64,000 nucleotides of DNA from a virus (Duplodnaviria; Caudoviricetes), in IMG/VR virus record IMGVR_UViG_2574180309_000001, positions 1 through 64,000 of that record; one strand, 5' to 3'. Within the stretch, counting starts at the first letter, position 1, and each line of letters starts with the position of its first letter. Positions 18,879 through 35,499 of this stretch are shown here, one piece after another. The translations under genes and the position numbers were made by a program. Below the pieces are notes generated by a model. That model saw nothing but the letters and a program-made list of their open reading frames with translations, did not search any database and was not told where the DNA came from.

Positions 18879-19569
18879 AGAAGATGTTCTATTTTTACGT
18901 TTACTTCTTATGAAGTAGGACTAGAGAAATGGAAGTTTACAAAAATCAGGTGGTTATACAATTGAAAAGTTCAATTTATCGGTATTTAAATAGAGAAATC
19001 GAGCTTTTTTTGCTATATAAGCATTTCCAGCATTATAGGAAATTGCAAACTTTTGTGGAACGAATGCCCCTGTTAGTTAATTTAAAGTTACAAAACAAAA
19101 AGATCATTTACTATCTTTTTTGTTTTGTAACTTTTTCAAATACAATGAAACTTTCTTAGTAAAAGGACCTCACAGCCGTTCATGAAGGTCTTCATAAGTT
19201 CCCGTGGTTATAATATACGGTAAAATATGCATTTGGCACTCTATACAGAAAGATGCACTATTGCATATCCTTATCCGTAAGTGTGAGAAAGCGTTGATAT
19301 AAAGCTATTTTCAAACTTTCTCAACTTTTTTCTGATAACCACACGACTGAATTTTGGCAAAAATATGATATTATGAAAATAATAAAATAAACGGACGTAA
19401 AAAGACCCACGGTGCAAGTAGTGCTGGTAACACTCTTACACTGCCCCTACTACCCTAGGGAACATTGTCGCGGATCTTATACATATAATTATAACACACC
19501 ATAGATTGAGGGTGGCACGTTTTCCTTTATGGGGTTTACGTGTCTTTTGTTCCGGCAAGGAGGAGCAAA

Positions 19570-20742
19570 ATGAAATATTGGTTATTTAAAGTTGTTGATC
19601 AAATTGATTTTCAAAAAAAGAGCCAAGAGAGTATTTCAAAAGAACTTGGAATAAGTGGCCCTGCGTTTTCAAAGAATTTATCAGGGAAAAGTGAATTGAA
19701 TTTTTTAAATGTAGTAAAGTTAGTTGAATTATTATATGAAGATCCGCTTGAAAAGAATTATATGATCCATGAATTTTGTAAAAAAACTAAAAGTAAAAAG
19801 AATTTAAGAATAGCTATGGAGTATGGAAATGCTTTAGGGGATTTGGAACTCCTTAGAATCGCGATTCAAAGAGGCTTTGAATCTAATAACTCTAAAACTT
19901 ACGAATGGGCATATATATATGAACTCGTTTGGTTAAGAGCTAAGAAATTTTTTACAGCTGAAAAACTTTTAACGGAGACTGAGAATAGGAAAAAGAGTAA
20001 AGTTCTTAAAAATGAAGAAACTAAAATAATGTTTGATATTTTAACATTATATTCTATGTATGATTGTAGGGATTTTAAACTTTTAGATGGGTATATACAA
20101 ACATTACAGGAAAAAATATCTGAACTTCCTAGCCAATTTATAAAAGATATATACAGTAGCCGTGTAAAGGAATGGTATGCGTATGCATTGCTAATGGACG
20201 AGCAAATAGAAAAATCAAGAGAACTATGCCATAGTATATTGAATGTTAATGATGAATTAGGTTATTTAAGGTTATTAAAGATTTCTGCATTAGGATATTT
20301 AGGTGAATCATACGTTGAAAATTATGAACAATCTTTATGGTATTTAAATAAAGGGATTGAGATGCTAGACCAACTATCTTATGAGAAAGCAGAAAACCGA
20401 AAAAAAGAGTTTTTAAATATGAGGTCTTACATTAGAATAATCCATCAAAAGGATATGTATGATTTACAAATTTTTGATGTGGGCGAGAAAGCGCTTCTAT
20501 ATATAGTAACAGGAGAAAAAGAAAAAGCTGCCACTATATTAAGAAAGTACGAAAAAGAGAATGGTAGTCTGTCTCCAATGAAATTATGTTATTTAGGAAT
20601 GGCATTGGAAGATAGAAAATTACTAGAAAAATCAATTGAGTTATTCTACTCGCAAGGGTGTAAATTTTATAGTTATTTACCTCGAAAAATATTGGTAGAT
20701 ATTAATAAAAATAGTATAATATACAAGGGTGATGCTAAATGA
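19570..20742 (+). CDS. aimR: Arbitrium receptor (HTH plus TPR)
   Basis: N-terminal HTH, KNLRIAMEY, helical repeats; directly upstream of a secreted-peptide gene and cI. Confidence 0.85.
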   Translation: MKYWLFKVVDQIDFQKKSQESISKELGISGPAFSKNLSGKSELNFLNVVKLVELLYEDPLEKNYMIHEFCKKTKSKKNLRIAMEYGNALGDLELLRIAIQRGFESNNSKTYEWAYIYELVWLRAKKFFTAEKLLTETENRKKSKVLKNEETKIMFDILTLYSMYDCRDFKLLDGYIQTLQEKISELPSQFIKDIYSSRVKEWYAYALLMDEQIEKSRELCHSILNVNDELGYLRLLKISALGYLGESYVENYEQSLWYLNKGIEMLDQLSYEKAENRKKEFLNMRSYIRIIHQKDMYDLQIFDVGEKALLYIVTGEKEKAATILRKYEKENGSLSPMKLCYLGMALEDRKLLEKSIELFYSQGCKFYSYLPRKILVDINKNSIIYKGDAK

Positions 20743-21203: not shown

Positions 21204-21554
21204 TCAATCGCCTGATATTTTAACTAGTTGTTTTATCATTTCAATAAGTTCTTTTTGTTTATCAGGATTCTTAGATCGGATATCTATCATTACTTGTTCT
21301 AAGTCATCCTTAGCTGTTAATTCAGGATTCTTCTCATCGGATTCACCTAATACATAAGAAACGGATACATTTGCGAGTTTAGCTATATCTAAAGAAGTTT
21401 TTCTCGATGGACATTTATCTATTTCTTCGTTCTCCCACATAGATACAGCAGATTTACTTTTTAGTCCTAGTGCGTTAATGAATTCAGATTGGCTCATTTT
21501 GAGTATTTCCGTTCTGATTTCTTTAACCCTTTTACTAATCAATTGATGATTCAT
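21204..21554 (-). CDS. CI-like XRE repressor
   Basis: XRE HTH; divergent from cro; no peptidase domain. Confidence 0.8.
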   Translation of the reverse strand: MNHQLISKRVKEIRTEILKMSQSEFINALGLKSKSAVSMWENEEIDKCPSRKTSLDIAKLANVSVSYVLGESDEKNPELTAKDDLEQVMIDIRSKNPDKQKELIEMIKQLVKISGD

Positions 21555-28959: not shown

Positions 28960-29589
28960 ATGGGACGAGGAAACAGAGGTATGGCATTTGAGAAGCTTAT
29001 CAATCTATCGAATGAAATGTATCAACGCGAGGGAGTAGCGCTTATAAACAAGCGTGCAACTCCTGTAAAGGTGTTAAAAAGTGCTGGTGGACGAGTATTA
29101 AATGGATTCTATGAAGCAAAGAGCACAGTAGACTATGACGGTGTATATAAGGGGCGAGCTGTAGCATTTGAAGCGAAGTCTACAGAGAAAGATACACGTT
29201 TTGATTTGAAGAACATTGCACAGCATCAGTTGGATTACTTGGAGAAAGCAGAGAAGATGGGAGCGATATGCTTCTTCCTTATAGAATTCAGTAAGGATAA
29301 TTCAGTATTCGCAGTGCCACTATCAGTCATTCAATCGTATGTAAGGATGTCTCATCAACCAAAGGGTAAGAAGTCTATACCAAGAGCAGACTTTGATATT
29401 TATGGGTATTTAGTAGAACAGACAGAACGAGCACCAGTGGATTACTTACAATACGTAGATGTAGCAGTAGCTCCAGTTATGTTTGATGGCATGATTCAGA
29501 TTGATCAGGACCATAAGAAAGTAGCGAATAACATTGAGGTAGCAAAAGAGAAGATGGCTAATAAGAAACGTAAGTTATTAAAGGCTTAA
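28960..29589 (+). CDS. recU: RecU-family Holliday junction resolvase
   Basis: NRGMAFE, STVDYDGVYKG, FEAKST, HQ. Confidence 0.9.
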   Translation: MGRGNRGMAFEKLINLSNEMYQREGVALINKRATPVKVLKSAGGRVLNGFYEAKSTVDYDGVYKGRAVAFEAKSTEKDTRFDLKNIAQHQLDYLEKAEKMGAICFFLIEFSKDNSVFAVPLSVIQSYVRMSHQPKGKKSIPRADFDIYGYLVEQTERAPVDYLQYVDVAVAPVMFDGMIQIDQDHKKVANNIEVAKEKMANKKRKLLKA

Positions 29590-29727: not shown

Positions 29728-30111
29728 ATGGAACAATTAGCATTCCTACCAATAATGGACAAAGAGATGGAGAAAAAGATGCAAAAGGAAGTTGTGAGCA
29801 TTCTAAAAGAGTATCGCGCCTTAAAAGCACGTTTTGAGAATGAAATGGAGCAACAACAAGAGGGAATTAGTCTGTTTCCTGAGATAAGGAATACAAGACA
29901 TGTCAGTAATATCAAATTCAAGCAAATTGATAAGGCTTTACAACACGTTTTAGATTATGATGAGGCAGAGATTATTAAGATGAAGTATTTGAATGGTGGG
30001 AAGTTAAAGGATAGTTTTATCTACACTGAATTATCAATGAAGAAAGATCATTTCTATTATAAGAAGAAAAATGCTATTCGATTAATCGCAACTTCATTGG
30101 GTATGATTTGA
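29728..30111 (+). CDS. ArpU-family late transcriptional activator
   Basis: IIKMKYL...YYKKKNAIRLIA; lies before the late region. Confidence 0.85.
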   Translation: MEQLAFLPIMDKEMEKKMQKEVVSILKEYRALKARFENEMEQQQEGISLFPEIRNTRHVSNIKFKQIDKALQHVLDYDEAEIIKMKYLNGGKLKDSFIYTELSMKKDHFYYKKKNAIRLIATSLGMI

Positions 30112-30200
30112 AGATATAGAAAAATAGTGCATTATATAATATTCGTATGTTAATATATTATAGTTATTTATTTTTAATATATTAATAGGGAGATTAAAGC

Positions 30201-30701
30201 ATGTTTAAGAAAACGAAATTATTATTTGCTATATTTACTAGTATGATTATTTTACTTGTAGGCTGCGGAGGACCTGAAATACCTTATAAAAAAGGAGAGG
30301 TCTACAATTATAAAGATGGTGATGCTTTTGTTAACATCACAGAAGATAATGAATGGAAAGTTAAGGGTGGCCGTGGAATGAAATCAGAAGCCATTTATAA
30401 GGTTGAACCTATGGATGAGTTTAATGCAGGCCCTTACTCTGTTATAAAAATATCCTTGAAAGAAGTCATTAGTAAGAAAGATCCTTGGCTTATTAGACAA
30501 GACTATGAATACTATATTCTGTCACCGATGGAAGAAGGATTTGGAACGGTATATATAAGTTCTTCTTATCAAGATGATAAAGATTTGAAGAAATTTAGAA
30601 AGCAGTTTGAAAGTGCAGATGACAAAGAAGCATTTATGAAACAAGAGATAGAGAAAGAGAAAAAGAAGTATCGCTTAAATAAATTTAGAAAAACAAGTTA
30701 A
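30201..30701 (+). CDS. Lipoprotein (moron)
   Basis: Lipobox LVGC. Confidence 0.75.
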   Translation: MFKKTKLLFAIFTSMIILLVGCGGPEIPYKKGEVYNYKDGDAFVNITEDNEWKVKGGRGMKSEAIYKVEPMDEFNAGPYSVIKISLKEVISKKDPWLIRQDYEYYILSPMEEGFGTVYISSSYQDDKDLKKFRKQFESADDKEAFMKQEIEKEKKKYRLNKFRKTS

Positions 30702-30844
30702 TAATTGATGGAGTTATTAGATAAATAGTAAATGTAGAGCAGGGTCATTAAAGTGATTCTGTTCTTTTTATATTTAAAAACGTCGACAAAACGCCGATAA
30801 AAAAGGGGGAATTTTAAAAATGAAAATAGCGATAAATTATATGT

Positions 30845-31640
30845 ACAAGCCCTTTGACAACCGTATATCGAAGAGGATTAGTACACCTATAAGTGAAACG
30901 TTCTTATGCGAGAATGTCACGGTAACGTATACCGCATAGTAGGGCGGGCAAGGCGGTACGAACCCGCGTTCAGACGAAAAGACCAATGAATGTATAACAA
31001 TGACATATTCCAGTGTGGCGGGTGTGAGATAACTCGCATTCGTCATGCTGTTTCTATTGTATTTATCAATCAGCTCGGAATGCGTCCTCTGGGTTGATAA
31101 TAAATATAAGTCTATTTCTCTCTAATATGTCGGTTCTTGAAAATGGAATGGAGGTGGTTGCTCATGATTGAGTGACATTTGCATTCTAAAAAGCTAAAAA
31201 GTATACGTATCTCGTACATTAGTAATTACCCATGATTCTTATTAATGACCAAAACGAGGGCAAAGAGTTCCACTCTTTGTTTGAGCCAATACAGCGAAAA
31301 CATTCCCCTTCCGTCCCTCTAGTGTATTGGTTCAAACAAGGCGTTGGAAGATTCATATACGTCTTGGATATAAACCCTTTATAATTCGATATTGGTCAGC
31401 TAAGGGCCGCGACACCCGATGTATTGACCGACTCTACGGAGTATAAACGAGAAGACTCCTAGTCTTCTCTCAGCCACCGAACGTAAAGCGCGTAGCTAAT
31501 AAGAGCTAAAAAATTACATGATGCGGTGGCTTGGAGAAGGTTGAGGGTATTCAGCCTTGATCTAAGAGAAACTTTTGCCATTTGTTTTCTCTCTTTTCTC
31601 CCATCCCCTTGAAAGCTGTCACTTCGGTGATGGCTTTTTG
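30845..31640 (+). ncRNA. Candidate long structured non-coding region
   Basis: ~800 nt without a credible ORF, richer in GC, many hairpins, ends in a terminator at 31612-31640. Confidence 0.45.
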
Positions 31641-31699
31641 TTATGTAGGATATTCTGTTATTTTGTCGAATAGATAGAGTAGGAGAGGAGGAATATAAT

Positions 31700-31900
31700 A
31701 TGAAAAGATTTTCGGTTACTGTACATTGGATTGGTGGAGGAAATGAAGAATATGTTATTTCCTATAAAAGAAGCGACGCCACAACAGATGATGTTGAGCA
31801 ATACATTATAAGAAATGAATACCGTTTTATAAAGCTTGGTGAAGAGTTGGTCAATCTTGATAATATATTAGCGATAAAAGTTAATGAAATCGGTAACTAA
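31700..31900 (+). CDS. Hypothetical protein
   Basis: RBS GAGGAGG; own terminator. Confidence 0.7.
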   Translation: MKRFSVTVHWIGGGNEEYVISYKRSDATTDDVEQYIIRNEYRFIKLGEELVNLDNILAIKVNEIGN

Positions 31901-32439
31901 AACTAACTACTAAAGAAAAAGCATCCAAAATGGGTGCTTTTTTCTTTGTTATATAGAAATTACACATTAAACGTATTTAATGAGTTTGCTAAGTATAAAG
32001 ACAATCGATAATCATACAATGATATGGAAGGGTCTTTTCTAACGTGTTAGTTACCTCAAAGTATATGTATCTTTTGGCGCCTGGGCGAGGGTGCTTTTTT
32101 TATTGCACATTATGATAAGGACAAGCATATATTAAAGTGTAGGACAAGTTCACTCGCTTGTATCCTATTTCAATACTCATAGAAAACCCCTTATCACATT
32201 AAGAGCACCCAACCATTGGATGCTCTTTTAAAATTATCTTATTCATATCGAAAATGTTTTAACATACAATAAGGTGAGAGTAGGCAAAAGAGTCAACGAT
32301 ACTCTAATAATTTGAAAGAGCGTCCATTGCAGGTGCTCTTTTATTTTGAACAAAATGGACATTTGGTTTAAAGGATTCTATATAAATAGGTAGAATCTAA
32401 TTACTTGGTTCACATTTTAATCCAAGGGGTACAAATTCG

Positions 32440-32631
32440 ATGCGACGTGAAAAGGATTTGTTGAAACAATGGAAGGCGGATTTGCAAGCTGTTCAAGAAG
32501 AGAAAAGGCTGAAGAAGAAAGCTAAGAAAAAGAATAAGAAATATAGCATTCCGGGTAATACAGCTGACTTCATGGATGGCAAGAATACTTATCGTAAAGA
32601 GAATGGGGTATGGAAGCAAAGAAATAAATAA
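32440..32631 (+). CDS. Small basic protein
   Basis: ORF track. Confidence 0.55.
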   Translation: MRREKDLLKQWKADLQAVQEEKRLKKKAKKKNKKYSIPGNTADFMDGKNTYRKENGVWKQRNK

Positions 32632-32759
32632 TGTGAGGATAAATGATTTTGATTAAATGTATAGGAATTATAGTAGGCGCTGCCTTGATTTGGGCGGCGT
32701 CTTATTTGTTGTTAAGGAAAGATAAGGATTAACAAAACAAACGAACACAACGAGTGAAA

Positions 32760-32897
32760 ATAAAACTGTCTAAAAGTTGACCCTTTTGTACAGTTGAAAT
32801 GTATAGGGTAAAAACTTTGTAAACAGATAGTTGTTAATGTCTAAAAGGTAGTCTAAAATAAAAGTGTATAATTCTTAAGACTTTTAGACTATTTTGA
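32760..32897. promoter_or_regulatory. Putative res site
   Basis: Direct and inverted GTCTAAAA/TTTTAGAC motifs upstream of the resolvase. Confidence 0.5.
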
Positions 32898-32907
32898 GGT
32901 GATTTGG

Positions 32908-33483
32908 ATGGCTATCGTTGGTTATGCAAGGGTGAGTACAAAAGATCAAAACTTAGATGCACAAATTGAAAGGTTAACAGAATATGGATGTGAAAAGATA
33001 TATTCTGAAAAGTACAGTGGAGCTAATAGTGATCGGGAAGAATTGCAAAAGGCATTAGAGTATATGAGAGAAGGGGATAAATTTGTTGTTTGTAAAATAG
33101 ATCGTTTAGCTAGATCGATATTTGATTTGCATAAGATTGTAAATCAATTAGCTGATCGAGGAATAGCGGTAGTATTTCTTAAAGAACAAATTGATTTCTC
33201 TACACCAGCAGGTAAATTGATGTTTACTATGTTAGGGGCTATTGCTGAGTTTGAAAGGGATTTAATTAACGAAAGAACAGCTGAAGGAAGAGAAAGAGCT
33301 AAAGCAATGGGCAAACATATGGGACGTAAGGGGCAGGATGAAAAACAGGTGAAGCAGGCTATGAACTTATTCTTTAATAGGAAAGAGAATGGTTTGAGTG
33401 TAAATGATATTTCAAAAATGACGGGAGTTCCGCGTTCTACTATTTATGCTAAGGCGAAAGAATTAAAAGAGGAGGAATTATGA
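32908..33483 (+). CDS. Small serine recombinase (resolvase)
   Basis: GYARVSTKDQ, DRLARS, C-terminal HTH. Confidence 0.93.
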   Translation: MAIVGYARVSTKDQNLDAQIERLTEYGCEKIYSEKYSGANSDREELQKALEYMREGDKFVVCKIDRLARSIFDLHKIVNQLADRGIAVVFLKEQIDFSTPAGKLMFTMLGAIAEFERDLINERTAEGRERAKAMGKHMGRKGQDEKQVKQAMNLFFNRKENGLSVNDISKMTGVPRSTIYAKAKELKEEEL

Positions 33484-33674
33484 TGGAGGAATACGAACAG
33501 CTACGGCAGGAATTTTGAAATATAAGTAACCAGTTAAAGTAGCGAATCCGCTGCTTTTTTATTTTATAAAAAAAGAACCTGCAAACCTGCAGATTCTCCT
33601 GATAATGATTTATGAAGTAAGACCCGAAAATATAATACAATGATTCGAAAATGAGTTCAAGAGTGTTTGGTGAT

Positions 33675-33905
33675 TTAAGCCACTCTATAATCTTTGTTTT
33701 TAAGCTTTTTTCTAGTATCCATGAATCCTATAATCATTATCGCCATGCATATTAACTTAAGCCAACGAACCTCCTGGTGGTACATTAGCCCAGAAAAGAA
33801 TTCATAGGCATATAACAAACCGACAATTGGAAATAGCCAAGTCATAAATTTCAAATCTTTTAGATGAAACTTATAATTATTAATCTTTTTCCACATATGT
33901 ATCAA
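33675..33905 (-). CDS. Small membrane protein
   Basis: Two TM segments. Confidence 0.65.
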   Translation of the reverse strand: MIHMWKKINNYKFHLKDLKFMTWLFPIVGLLYAYEFFSGLMYHQEVRWLKLICMAIMIIGFMDTRKKLKNKDYRVA

Positions 33906-33914
33906 CTCCTATTG

Positions 33915-34121
33915 TTATGAGGTTCTGTAGTTTTTCTTTTTGAAATCTCGCATGTTGAGGATAAAGAATAGAAGGAAGATAACAGCTCCGATGCCATTAA
34001 TCCAGTAGTATGTGCGCCCTGTTGTGAATCCGTTATAGAATTCATAGGCATTCCAAATTACAAGAAGTACTGAGCAGACAGTAGAGACCATTAATGAGCC
34101 AAAACTTCTCATGATTTTCAC
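33915..34121 (-). CDS. Small membrane protein, paralogue-like of its neighbour
   Basis: Shares AYEF..G and K..YR with 33675-33905. Confidence 0.65.
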   Translation of the reverse strand: MKIMRSFGSLMVSTVCSVLLVIWNAYEFYNGFTTGRTYYWINGIGAVIFLLFFILNMRDFKKKNYRTS

Positions 34122-34338
34122 CTCGATTCAAAATGTTAGAACTTATTTATAATTTTACATTTAAATAAATAGATTTACAAGAAGAGGGAATAATAAAAAG
34201 AACCCGCTGGAGTTCGGGTCCTTTCAGAAGTGATGATGTATTCTCGGCTTGGGAACTGAGAAAAACACAAAAATATAATACATCGAGTTTTAGGGAATTT
34301 CAAGAATAAATTAGAGTGATTTTGGAGGATGATGAATA

Positions 34339-34551
34339 ATGAAACTAACTAAACAAGAACAAGCGATTGCAATTGGTACATTCATTTCGATGTTGGGACA
34401 GGACTTTGTAAATGAGCGCATCGATAAACAGAAATTAGAAAGTGCAATTCCAATCTTTAATGAGTTAGAAGATAACACAACACCAAAGCAAAAGAGAGAA
34501 GCAATGGTTAGTTTGCTCGATAAAACAATGGAAGAATTCCTAAAAGCTTAA
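34339..34551 (+). CDS. Hypothetical phage protein
   Basis: RBS GGAGG. Confidence 0.65.
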   Translation: MKLTKQEQAIAIGTFISMLGQDFVNERIDKQKLESAIPIFNELEDNTTPKQKREAMVSLLDKTMEEFLKA

Positions 34552-34584
34552 AAAACTAATAGAGCCTATCGTGAGGTGGTGGTT

Positions 34585-35499
34585 ATGGCTAGACAACGTA
34601 GCGCGGACAGAGATAAAGCATTTGAAATATATAAAGTAAGTAAAGGTGAGAAGCCATTAATTGATATTGCTACTGAGTTAAACCTTAAACCTTCGCAGAT
34701 CAGAAAGTGGAAATCACAAGACAAATGGGATGAACAAATGAATGGTAACGTTACTATTGCGAAAAGGAGCGTTACTAATGTTAAAAATCCCAAAACGAAA
34801 GAAAAACTGAAAGAGATTTTAGAAGATGAAGAGTTGACCGAAAAGGAAAGGCTCTTTTGTTTGTATTATGTGAAATACTTCAATGGTACACAAGCTGCAC
34901 TGAAGGCTGGATACTCCAAAGACGGCGCTCATGTACAGGCTAGTCGATTGCTAAGACGTGAACGAGTTTCTTCCTATATAAAAGAGCTTAAAGGTGAGTT
35001 AATCGAGAATGTATTTGTGGAAGCCATGGATGTGCTTAAAGAGTACATTAAGATTGCTTTTGCTGATATTACTAACTATGTAACCTTTGGACAGAAGGAA
35101 GTACCTGTAATGGGGATGTTTGGCCCGATGAAAGATGAATCCGGTAAAGAAATAACTCGTATCATAAATTATGTAGATTTACACGAGGCTGACATGGTTG
35201 ATGGTTCTATAATAACCGAAGTAAAACTCGGAAAAGATGGCGTGTCAGTAAAACTTGCTGACAAGATGAAAGCACTGGACAAACTATCTCAGTACTTTGA
35301 CTTAGTACCTGACAATTTCAAACGTAAAATCGAAGAAGAACGCCACAAAATCCAGATGGAAGTGCAGAAAGCTCAAATTGATAAAATTAAAGCAGATACT
35401 TCTCGTATTAAAGGTGATGAAGGTGAAGAGTATGAAGATGACGGATTCATCGATGCGTTAGAAGGTAAAACAGCAGAGGTGTGGGAAGATGAAACTTAA
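34585..35499 (+). CDS. terS: Terminase small subunit
   Basis: IRKWKSQDKW HTH; FNGTQAALKAGYS. Confidence 0.9.
   Translation: MARQRSADRDKAFEIYKVSKGEKPLIDIATELNLKPSQIRKWKSQDKWDEQMNGNVTIAKRSVTNVKNPKTKEKLKEILEDEELTEKERLFCLYYVKYFNGTQAALKAGYSKDGAHVQASRLLRRERVSSYIKELKGELIENVFVEAMDVLKEYIKIAFADITNYVTFGQKEVPVMGMFGPMKDESGKEITRIINYVDLHEADMVDGSIITEVKLGKDGVSVKLADKMKALDKLSQYFDLVPDNFKRKIEEERHKIQMEVQKAQIDKIKADTSRIKGDEGEEYEDDGFIDALEGKTAEVWEDET

Follow-up and report, generated by a model that had tools for sequence, protein, structure and literature searches.

We analysed a window of 64,000 nucleotides (nt), part of a 72.9-kb virus record in IMG/VR (IMGVR_UViG_2574180309_000001), in which an array of three short tandem units lies within a temperate-phage region. 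The units stand between a conserved sequence block and a leader, and each is a candidate small RNA (sRNA) gene with a pair of promoter-like boxes and a terminator. The initial annotation had interpreted them as an array of sporulation-timed sRNA morons of a prophage. The features of the array are listed below; the RNAs are predictions, and their starts are putative.

31915–31943, plus strand: terminator T0 (13 pairs, loop of 3, T-run), the first of a set of related terminators
31946–31972 (27 nt, ending at about 31975), plus strand: conserved block TTGTTATATAGAAATTACACATTAAAC, the upstream edge of the insertion slot
31993–31997 and 32013–32020, plus strand: sigma-E-like boxes of unit 1, GTATA and CATACAAT, separated by 15 nt
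32027–32102, plus strand: predicted unit 1 RNA of about 75 nt, with a UUACCUC stretch and a terminator with U-run at 32076–32095
32107–32108 and 32126–32133, plus strand: sigma-K-like boxes of unit 2, AC and CATATATT, separated by 17 nt
32106–32134, plus strand: full predicted promoter of unit 2, with CACA at 32106–32109, a 16-nt spacer that holds AAGGACAAG, and CATATATTA at 32126–32134
32139–32231, plus strand: predicted unit 2 RNA of about 90 nt, with a 5' hairpin (32139–32168), a single strand (32169–32200), and a terminator (32201–32227)
32243–32247 and 32263–32270, plus strand: sigma-E-like boxes of unit 3, TCATA and CATACAAT, separated by 15 nt
32277–32344, plus strand: predicted unit 3 RNA of about 68 nt, with a 5' hairpin (32277–32305), a short single strand, and a terminator (32313–32343)
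32346–32372, plus strand: leader TTGAACAAAATGGACATTTGG..., the downstream edge of the insertion slot

Reading of the sequence confirms all three pairs of promoter-like boxes at the positions that the initial annotation had assigned to them. The four related terminators reported with them are also real: a scan recovered those at 31915–31943 and 32076–32095, and those at 32201–32227 and 32313–32343, which the scan missed, form stable hairpins with U-runs on folding. Terminator-like sites are enriched in positions 30000–34600 (14, compared with 2.4 ± 1.5 in shuffles). Each unit has its own predicted promoter and an intrinsic terminator around a non-coding stretch of 50–300 nt, as expected of an sRNA gene. 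The units are mutually unrelated, with each family representative matching the window only once; a tandem-repeat antitoxin reading was rejected because the three units do not match one another.

The accompanying statement that no unit contains an open reading frame (ORF) led by a ribosome-binding site (RBS) is essentially right, since no unit holds a conserved ORF and no start codon behind an RBS is conserved across the relatives of any unit, but it needs one caveat. Only two plus-strand ORFs of at least 20 amino acids (aa) lie inside the units: one at 31980–32042 (20 aa, without a Shine–Dalgarno sequence) and the exception, at 32044–32115 (23 aa), which has a GTG start with GGAAGGG 12 nt upstream and runs through the terminator into the next promoter. 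The GTG of the latter is GTA in the related locus L056. On the minus strand, a 39-aa ORF at 32243–32362 is without a Shine–Dalgarno sequence.

The sigma-K-like promoter of unit 2 is an exact fit to the published SigK consensus of the Bacillus cereus group, MWCM-16-CATANNNTD, as given in Additional file 2 of PMC4750369: CACA matches the −35 element MWCM, the spacer is 16 nt long, and CATATATTA matches the −10 element CATANNNTD. Promoters of bclA and bclB whose dependence on sigK was seen in mutants are also described (PMC4750369). The 39-nt upstream module of unit 2, used as an nhmmer profile over all fetched DNA, has 88 distinct occurrences with the consensus tTgCACntTtTgAtAAGgACAAGCATATAtTg. 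In the −35 columns, C is found in 77 modules, A in 83, C in 79, and A or C in 70, and none of the 88 modules lacks the A of CATA or the T that stands eight bases further on. The initial annotation had proposed a check on whether the boxes are conserved in homologous units, and for unit 2 they are: conservation across the columns is highest at AC in the −35 element, at GGACAAG in the spacer, and at C-A-T-A...T in the −10 element. AC-N17-CATA is kept in 76 of the 88 modules, and 58 fit the full published SigK consensus.

A terminator follows within 220 nt of 85 of the 88 modules, the median distance between −10 box and end of the terminator being 83 nt, and the RNA bodies behind the modules fall into 19 clusters. 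Short terminated units were also seen at 20 places chosen mostly from promoter-only matches. These module counts are not independent, because similarity to unit 2 was the criterion by which most loci were retrieved, and a single cluster takes up 46 of the 83 clustered bodies. One body cluster, with two members, is a gene for a CHRD-domain protein behind a diverged module. In locus L018 (3780–4250), such a diverged module (−10 box AATATATTA) precedes a 135-aa CHRD-domain gene just past the resolvase gene; this CHRD-domain gene is not in the window.

The entire spacer of the unit 2 module is conserved, beyond what a sigma factor needs, and this hints at a second DNA-binding regulator. The spacer holds AAGGACAAGC, which fits a consensus for SpoIIID, a lead rather than evidence. 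In the supplement of PMC4750369, CTTGTC (GACAAG as read on the opposite strand) stands in the spacers of bxpA and iunH, which is again a lead and not a test.

The strong conservation of this spacer, suggestive of an additional DNA-binding protein, also speaks for an alternative in which the units are real sRNA genes that are not timed to sporulation. Their promoters would then be read by sigma-A or by an RNA polymerase aided by a phage factor, such as the phrog_248 activator at 29728–30111, and the RNAs would act during lysogen growth or lytic development. A phage transcriptional activator is indeed encoded 2 kb upstream of the array, the −10 boxes across the families contain TATAAT-like hexamers (TATATT, TATACT, TACAAT, and TATAAT), and sigma-70-like readings score 9/12 matches each for unit 2 (TGCACA-18-TATATT) and unit 3 (TTCATA-17-TACAAT). 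However, sigma-70-like sites occur in the window at chance density (19, compared with 19.8 expected), and the conserved module positions are AC and C-A-T-A rather than TTG, the G of TTG being found in 65 of 88 modules compared with 83 for the A and 79 for the C. Unit 1 has no acceptable sigma-A −35 box and is not among the listed sigma-70-like sites. Moreover, the unit 2 module does not recur before other genes of the prophage, which yields one exact match and three more at two mismatches, within chance (1.5 expected). We consider this alternative unlikely.

The predicted RNA of unit 2 has the conserved structure with a conserved unpaired stretch that is expected of an sRNA. The window copy folds with a minimum free energy (MFE) of −21.3 kcal/mol (z = −4.39). 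In an alignment of 42 distinct copies, the fold of 5' hairpin and terminator pairs 90.8 per cent of cells, compared with 36–50 per cent when the partners are slid, and 7 of 15 pairs show changes on both sides. Between these elements, the single strand holds a conserved UUCAAUACUCA and a C-rich stretch, which across the family takes the form of a C/U-rich run such as CUCCUU or CCCCUU. One-nucleotide insertions and deletions in the conserved stretch of the relatives indicate that unit 2 is non-coding. Units 2 and 3 and most unit 2 relatives share the same plan of 5' hairpin, unpaired stretch, and terminator. A pairing between GATAAGG of the promoter and CCUUAUC of the RNA, seen in one fold, was dropped because it is not kept in relatives with a different RNA body. 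When the window was searched for sequence complementary to the conserved unpaired stretch, nine matches were found, one of them unit 2 itself, which is at chance level (6.3 expected).

Relatives of unit 2 are present in 52 of 71 genomes of the genus, all of the B. cereus group, at up to six places per genome. At the family level they are found in 53 of 105 genomes, the sole match outside the genus being 29 nt long. Of 13 chromosomal places examined, 12 (in 12 genomes) are syntenic, with a unit-2-like copy between a 67-aa ORF (94–100 per cent identical) and a convergent 70-aa membrane ORF; further neighbours encode DUF3995 and DUF1835 proteins. The chromosomal copy has a promoter of the same type as that of unit 2 (ATGCAC...CATATATTA). 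This syntenic copy with the same promoter type identifies unit 2 as belonging to a host family, of which it is a copy carried by a phage. No alignment was obtained between the 67-aa ORF beside the chromosomal copy and the 66-aa ORF that precedes the array.

The presence of up to six unit-2-like places per genome could also mean that the units are interspersed repeats or recombination modules like those of bcr group B, in which case the ‘promoter’ module and the terminator tail would be sites of cassette exchange and the RNA would be incidental. In line with this, the units tend to go with cargo regions that vary, there is a resolvase gene 550 nt downstream, and junctions recur at the terminator tail and TTATTG[C/A]AC. 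In the passages that describe these repeats, bcr5 is 310 bp long, flanks resolvase-containing clusters, and has a stable predicted structure (PMC3184786), and bcr4–bcr6 are present at about two copies per strain (PMC6542083). Like bcr4–bcr6, the units are restricted to the genus, have few copies per genome, lie near strain-specific and resolvase genes, and have stable predicted structure; by description alone they differ in that the passages on bcr do not present RNA genes with promoter and terminator (PMC3184786; PMC6542083). The units may overlap the bcr repeats described in 2011. Against an exchange role, covariation in the unit 2 family preserves RNA hairpins, the chromosomal copy is syntenic across 12 genomes and not mobile, 85 of the 88 modules have a terminator at an sRNA-like distance, and no second copy flanks the resolvase gene in this record (one match). 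That the units are merely repeats of this kind is quite unlikely.

The case for an sRNA gene is strongest for unit 2 and is weaker for units 1 and 3. Among 25 distinct copies of unit 1, CATA[C/T/A]AAT is found in 19, and ATA lies 13–17 nt upstream in 18, at 15 nt in 14 of them, so that the proposed check on box conservation turns out well for unit 1 too. Diverged copies keep the boxes while the spacer sequence differs. Of 70 genomes, 18 have relatives of unit 1, mostly with a unit 2 relative immediately downstream, which makes unit 1 followed by unit 2 a recurrent pair. The SigE consensus has ATA about 16 nt upstream of CATACA-T, and the −10 boxes of units 1 and 3 (CATACAAT) match its −10 element. 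One mapped SigE promoter reads ATA-N16-CATATATA (PMC3789822).

The predicted RNA of unit 1 (MFE −14.2 kcal/mol, z = +0.47) is unstructured beyond its terminator, and thus lacks the conserved structure found in unit 2. The −10 box is missing in 6 of the 25 unit 1 relatives, three of which are fused to a 22-aa ORF; with this loss and fusion, unit 1 could be a gene remnant. Specifically, in L174 (3070–2960, minus strand), L175 (207–335), and L188 (1494–1621, minus strand), the unit 1 core runs in frame into the 5' part of a hydrophobic ORF of 22 aa homologous to the window ORF at 32643–32732. This fusion would be either a recombinant junction (a chimera) or a sign that unit 1 derives from the 3' end of that gene (a shared origin).

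These fusions, along with a unit 1 body that is no more structured than shuffles and the diverged unit 2 module before the CHRD-domain gene in L018, could be taken to mean that all units are decayed protein-coding morons, left with promoter and terminator after loss of the ORF and without function. Yet the unit 2 family has been retained throughout the genus and its structure covaries, and diverged unit 1 copies keep their boxes though the spacer changes. We give decay of this kind hardly any credence.

Unit 3 is predicted to be structured (MFE −19.8 kcal/mol, z = −3.27). Elsewhere, the only genome with full-length copies is G012, which has two (98 and 95 per cent identity), where the boxes are identical save for one spacer base; six other genomes counted for unit 3 have only 22–29-nt matches, and an exact 19-mer of unit 3 has no match in viral contigs. 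Its relatives being two near-identical copies, they hold no diversity for covariation.

The slot in which the units lie is shared by many phages. The block occurs once in the window, with no match in shuffles, and its core is present in at least 120 viral contigs. In most block-bearing contigs the block directly joins the leader (GAACAAAATGGACATTTGG...AGGAGG), followed by a small ORF that differs between phages, and in 54 of 121 sequences an RBS-led ORF of at least 35 aa begins no more than 60 nt after the block. In the window, the three units separate block and leader. The module of block and leader, found before a wide range of small ORFs in no fewer than 120 viral contigs and sometimes present twice in one contig (L055 and L056), resembles a shared expression signal for cargo genes and, by eye, is not an obvious sigma-A promoter.

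Among related prophages, the units are present or absent as separate, modular non-coding cassettes, as the initial annotation had supposed. Of 20 loci found via the 63-aa ORF that follows the array, nine carry unit 1 and/or unit 2 or diverged forms, and the remaining 11 have the block joined to the leader or carry other units. Unit 1 and/or unit 2 was seen in 10 of the 120 loci that bear the block, and unit 3 in none of them. Presence and absence in otherwise collinear phages, combined with flanking signals of their own, is what is expected of morons. Other phages hold different short units with promoter and terminator in the same slot, belonging to at least six further families (labelled C and E to I). 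Cassette junctions recur at the T-run tail of the terminator and TTATTG[C/A]AC. This location of the junctions is compatible with the proposal that cassettes are swapped through the shared terminator.

Short terminated transcripts near late genes have a precedent in lambda, which makes one upstream of its late genes. By analogy, the array could be a stack of cis-acting terminators that shields the late genes and the 63-aa gene from transcription that begins at the block or further upstream, and the ‘units’ would be short abortive leader transcripts. Four terminators do lie within 430 nt, between the conserved block and its leader, in a region between the late activator gene and the terminase genes. 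However, most relatives have no such terminator stack at this slot, the chromosomal paralogue of unit 2 stands alone between convergent genes, and conservation covers the non-terminator body and the promoter as well. An insulating role is highly unlikely.

The wider setting of the slot, which is flanked on one side by a late activator gene and on the other by the terminase genes, is as follows.

19540–20742: AimR-like regulator (Pfam PF22871, E-value 2.7e-42)
21204–21554: helix-turn-helix repressor
28960–29589: RecU
29728–30111: phrog_248 ‘transcriptional activator’, about 2 kb upstream of the array
30201–30701: DUF5512 lipoprotein
31700–31900, plus strand: 66-aa ORF, the upstream neighbour of the array, ended by terminator T0
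32440–32631, plus strand: 63-aa lysine-rich ORF (phrog_16399, a family of unknown function), the first gene past the array
32643–32732: 29-aa hydrophobic ORF (phrog_34161), 300 nt downstream of the units
32899–33483: resolvase gene, 550 nt downstream of the units
34576 and 35489: small and large terminase, respectively

The AimR-like gene suggests an arbitrium-type lysis–lysogeny switch in the prophage. Hosts of the related sequences are species of the B. cereus group (thuringiensis, toyonensis, mycoides, albus, pacificus, and others).

Two further non-coding elements were seen beside the slot. Directly upstream, at 30765–31680 (plus strand), lies a stretch of about 850 nt without an ORF of more than 50 aa, which ends in a terminator at 31611–31638. 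It has 77–88 per cent identity over 54–88 per cent of its length in Bacillus phages 0105phi7-2, IEBH, LY4, 250, PfNC7401, and PfIS075, in whose records no feature is annotated beneath it, and pieces of it occur in many fetched loci. A 16-sequence alignment has 159 predicted pairs, 33 of them with compensatory changes (e.g. pair 603/645: CG in 10, UA in 5, and AU in 1), and the stretch has no Rfam match. It is a candidate large structured RNA. In seven loci (L140, L074, L089, L048, L027, L037, and L120), the slot right after the block holds an element of about 170 nt, with a 5' end like the acceptor and D arm of a transfer RNA (tRNA), a 3' end like a T arm and acceptor, and about 110 nt between them. 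ARAGORN reports no tRNA in these seven loci, and a tRNA scan of the window also found none.

We favour the reading, at a probability of about 0.6, that the units are autonomous sRNA cassettes with promoters of the mother-cell type, whose products would act in trans inside the lysogen's mother cell late in sporulation. Each unit would be a self-contained RNA ‘moron’ in a cargo slot of a temperate phage of the B. cereus group. Each promoter would be of the CATA type used by mother-cell sigma factors, with an exact SigK fit in unit 2 and a SigE/SigK-like CATACAAT in units 1 and 3, and each cassette would yield an RNA of 70–95 nt ended by its intrinsic terminator. The RNA would likely act by base pairing in trans with messenger RNAs at or near Shine–Dalgarno sequences, through the unpaired C/U-rich stretch, and this pairing would take place in the mother cell, late in the sporulation of the lysogen. 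The prophage thereby probably adds to or retunes a host circuit, because the host chromosome has a conserved candidate RNA gene that is paralogous to unit 2 and shares its promoter. The initial picture of an array of sRNA morons is supported in part and has to be amended: unit 2 is not an invention of the phage, given the chromosomal paralogue and the relatives in 52 of 71 genomes, and unit 1 has an unstructured body and is fused to an ORF in three loci.

Several observations count against the favoured reading. Matches to the boxes alone are at chance level: CATACAAT occurs seven times in the window compared with 3.9 expected (14 of 100 shuffles reach seven), and the full SigK consensus also occurs seven times, compared with 4.6 expected (17 of 100 shuffles reach seven). 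It is the conservation of the boxes in homologous units outside the window that carries the case. The distance from ATA to the −10 box is 15 nt in units 1 and 3, compared with 16 nt in the SigE example of PMC3789822. C-rich tetramers are found in 52 of 81 RNA bodies, compared with 48.9 in shuffles of the same bodies and 17.0 ± 3.4 in random locus segments; the near equality with same-body shuffles means that it is the composition that is unusual and not the placement of a motif. A comparison with 50,697 records of isolated phages matched only the stretch of terminator and block at 31913–31975, in 19 records in which T0 is conserved together with the block, and none has units 1–3, which are carried instead by prophage contigs and genomes. 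The sigma-70-like scores of units 2 and 3, the conservation of the whole unit 2 spacer, the −10 boxes missing among unit 1 relatives, and the dependence among module counts belong with these points.

Public RNA data from four runs (two contig sets and two raw-read runs) bear on expression as follows. What the two contig sets cover, in relatives, is limited to the block, unit 1, or the gene downstream. A 229-nt contig of an RNA library (depth 3.3) spans 31924–32101 and stops at the terminator of unit 1; it starts upstream of T0 and could be DNA. In another run, a 624-nt contig with a depth of 507 contains the block followed by sequence like a diverged unit 1, and neighbouring contigs have depths of 122 and 143. 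The raw reads of two runs give zero depth on units 1 and 3 and a trace depth of 1.45 in one bin of unit 2 (32111–32157), with no starts or ends. No discrete transcript emerges from these data, which say nothing for or against expression.

Rfam 15 has no match at the gathering threshold in the window or in 16 loci with unit relatives, a threshold on E-value likewise gave nothing, and the best sub-threshold hits for the units are driven by the terminators. In the open-access literature, we found no paper on prophage sRNA arrays of this sort. The finding is nonetheless of a recognized kind, that of sporulation-controlled or prophage-borne sRNAs, in a variant form. B. subtilis has sRNAs that depend on SigK or on forespore sigma factors. 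Bvs196 of B. velezensis is another sRNA under sporulation control (PMC9147052). Like these, the units are small non-coding RNAs of an endospore former, here predicted from sequence, that have an intrinsic terminator and a promoter of sporulation-sigma type; unlike these single chromosomal genes, they form a multi-copy family with tandem phage-borne copies and have no likeness in Rfam.

The concepts of the prophage moron and the prophage-encoded sRNA come from lambdoid phages and enterobacterial prophages. As in morons, each unit is an autonomous combination of promoter, cargo, and terminator in a late-region cargo slot, present in some related phages and absent from others. Unlike protein morons, the cargo is predicted to be RNA, the promoters are of mother-cell sigma type, at least three cassettes are stacked, and one has a paralogue on the host chromosome. 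RsaE/RoxS are sRNAs of Firmicutes with a C-rich seed, and the unpaired C/U-rich stretch between hairpins, suited to pairing with Shine–Dalgarno sequences, recalls them. There is no sequence or Rfam match to RsaE/RoxS, however, and the C-rich motif is a likeness of composition only.

Bacillus prophages also carry type I toxin–antitoxin loci, in which cargo regions similarly pair small RNAs with very short hydrophobic ORFs; one such ORF, of 29 aa, lies near the array. A type I toxin–antitoxin reading was rejected, since the units hold no hydrophobic toxin ORF and no convergent RNA: all unit promoters and terminators are on the plus strand, which leaves no convergent antisense pair.

Taken further, the favoured reading leads to a broader and tentative possibility. 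The B. cereus group may have an undescribed superfamily of SigK-driven sRNAs built on the plan of unit 2 with one fixed chromosomal member, paralogues of which temperate phages would have captured, diversified, and stacked in an RNA-cargo slot beside the candidate structured RNA of about 850 nt, the slot that in other phages holds the element with tRNA-like ends. With these RNAs released in the mother cell, the prophage could turn translation late in sporulation, such as that of coat, exosporium, or lysis functions, to its own benefit.

If transcribed as predicted, the array would exemplify a prophage that bears regulatory RNAs timed to sporulation and set out in arrays. The B. cereus group, some of whose members are pathogens of insects or food-borne pathogens, would have a widespread unnamed sRNA family, and the family's single conserved chromosomal gene, with a textbook SigK promoter, would offer a ready test system. 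Phage interference with spore formation would then be directly testable at the RNA level.

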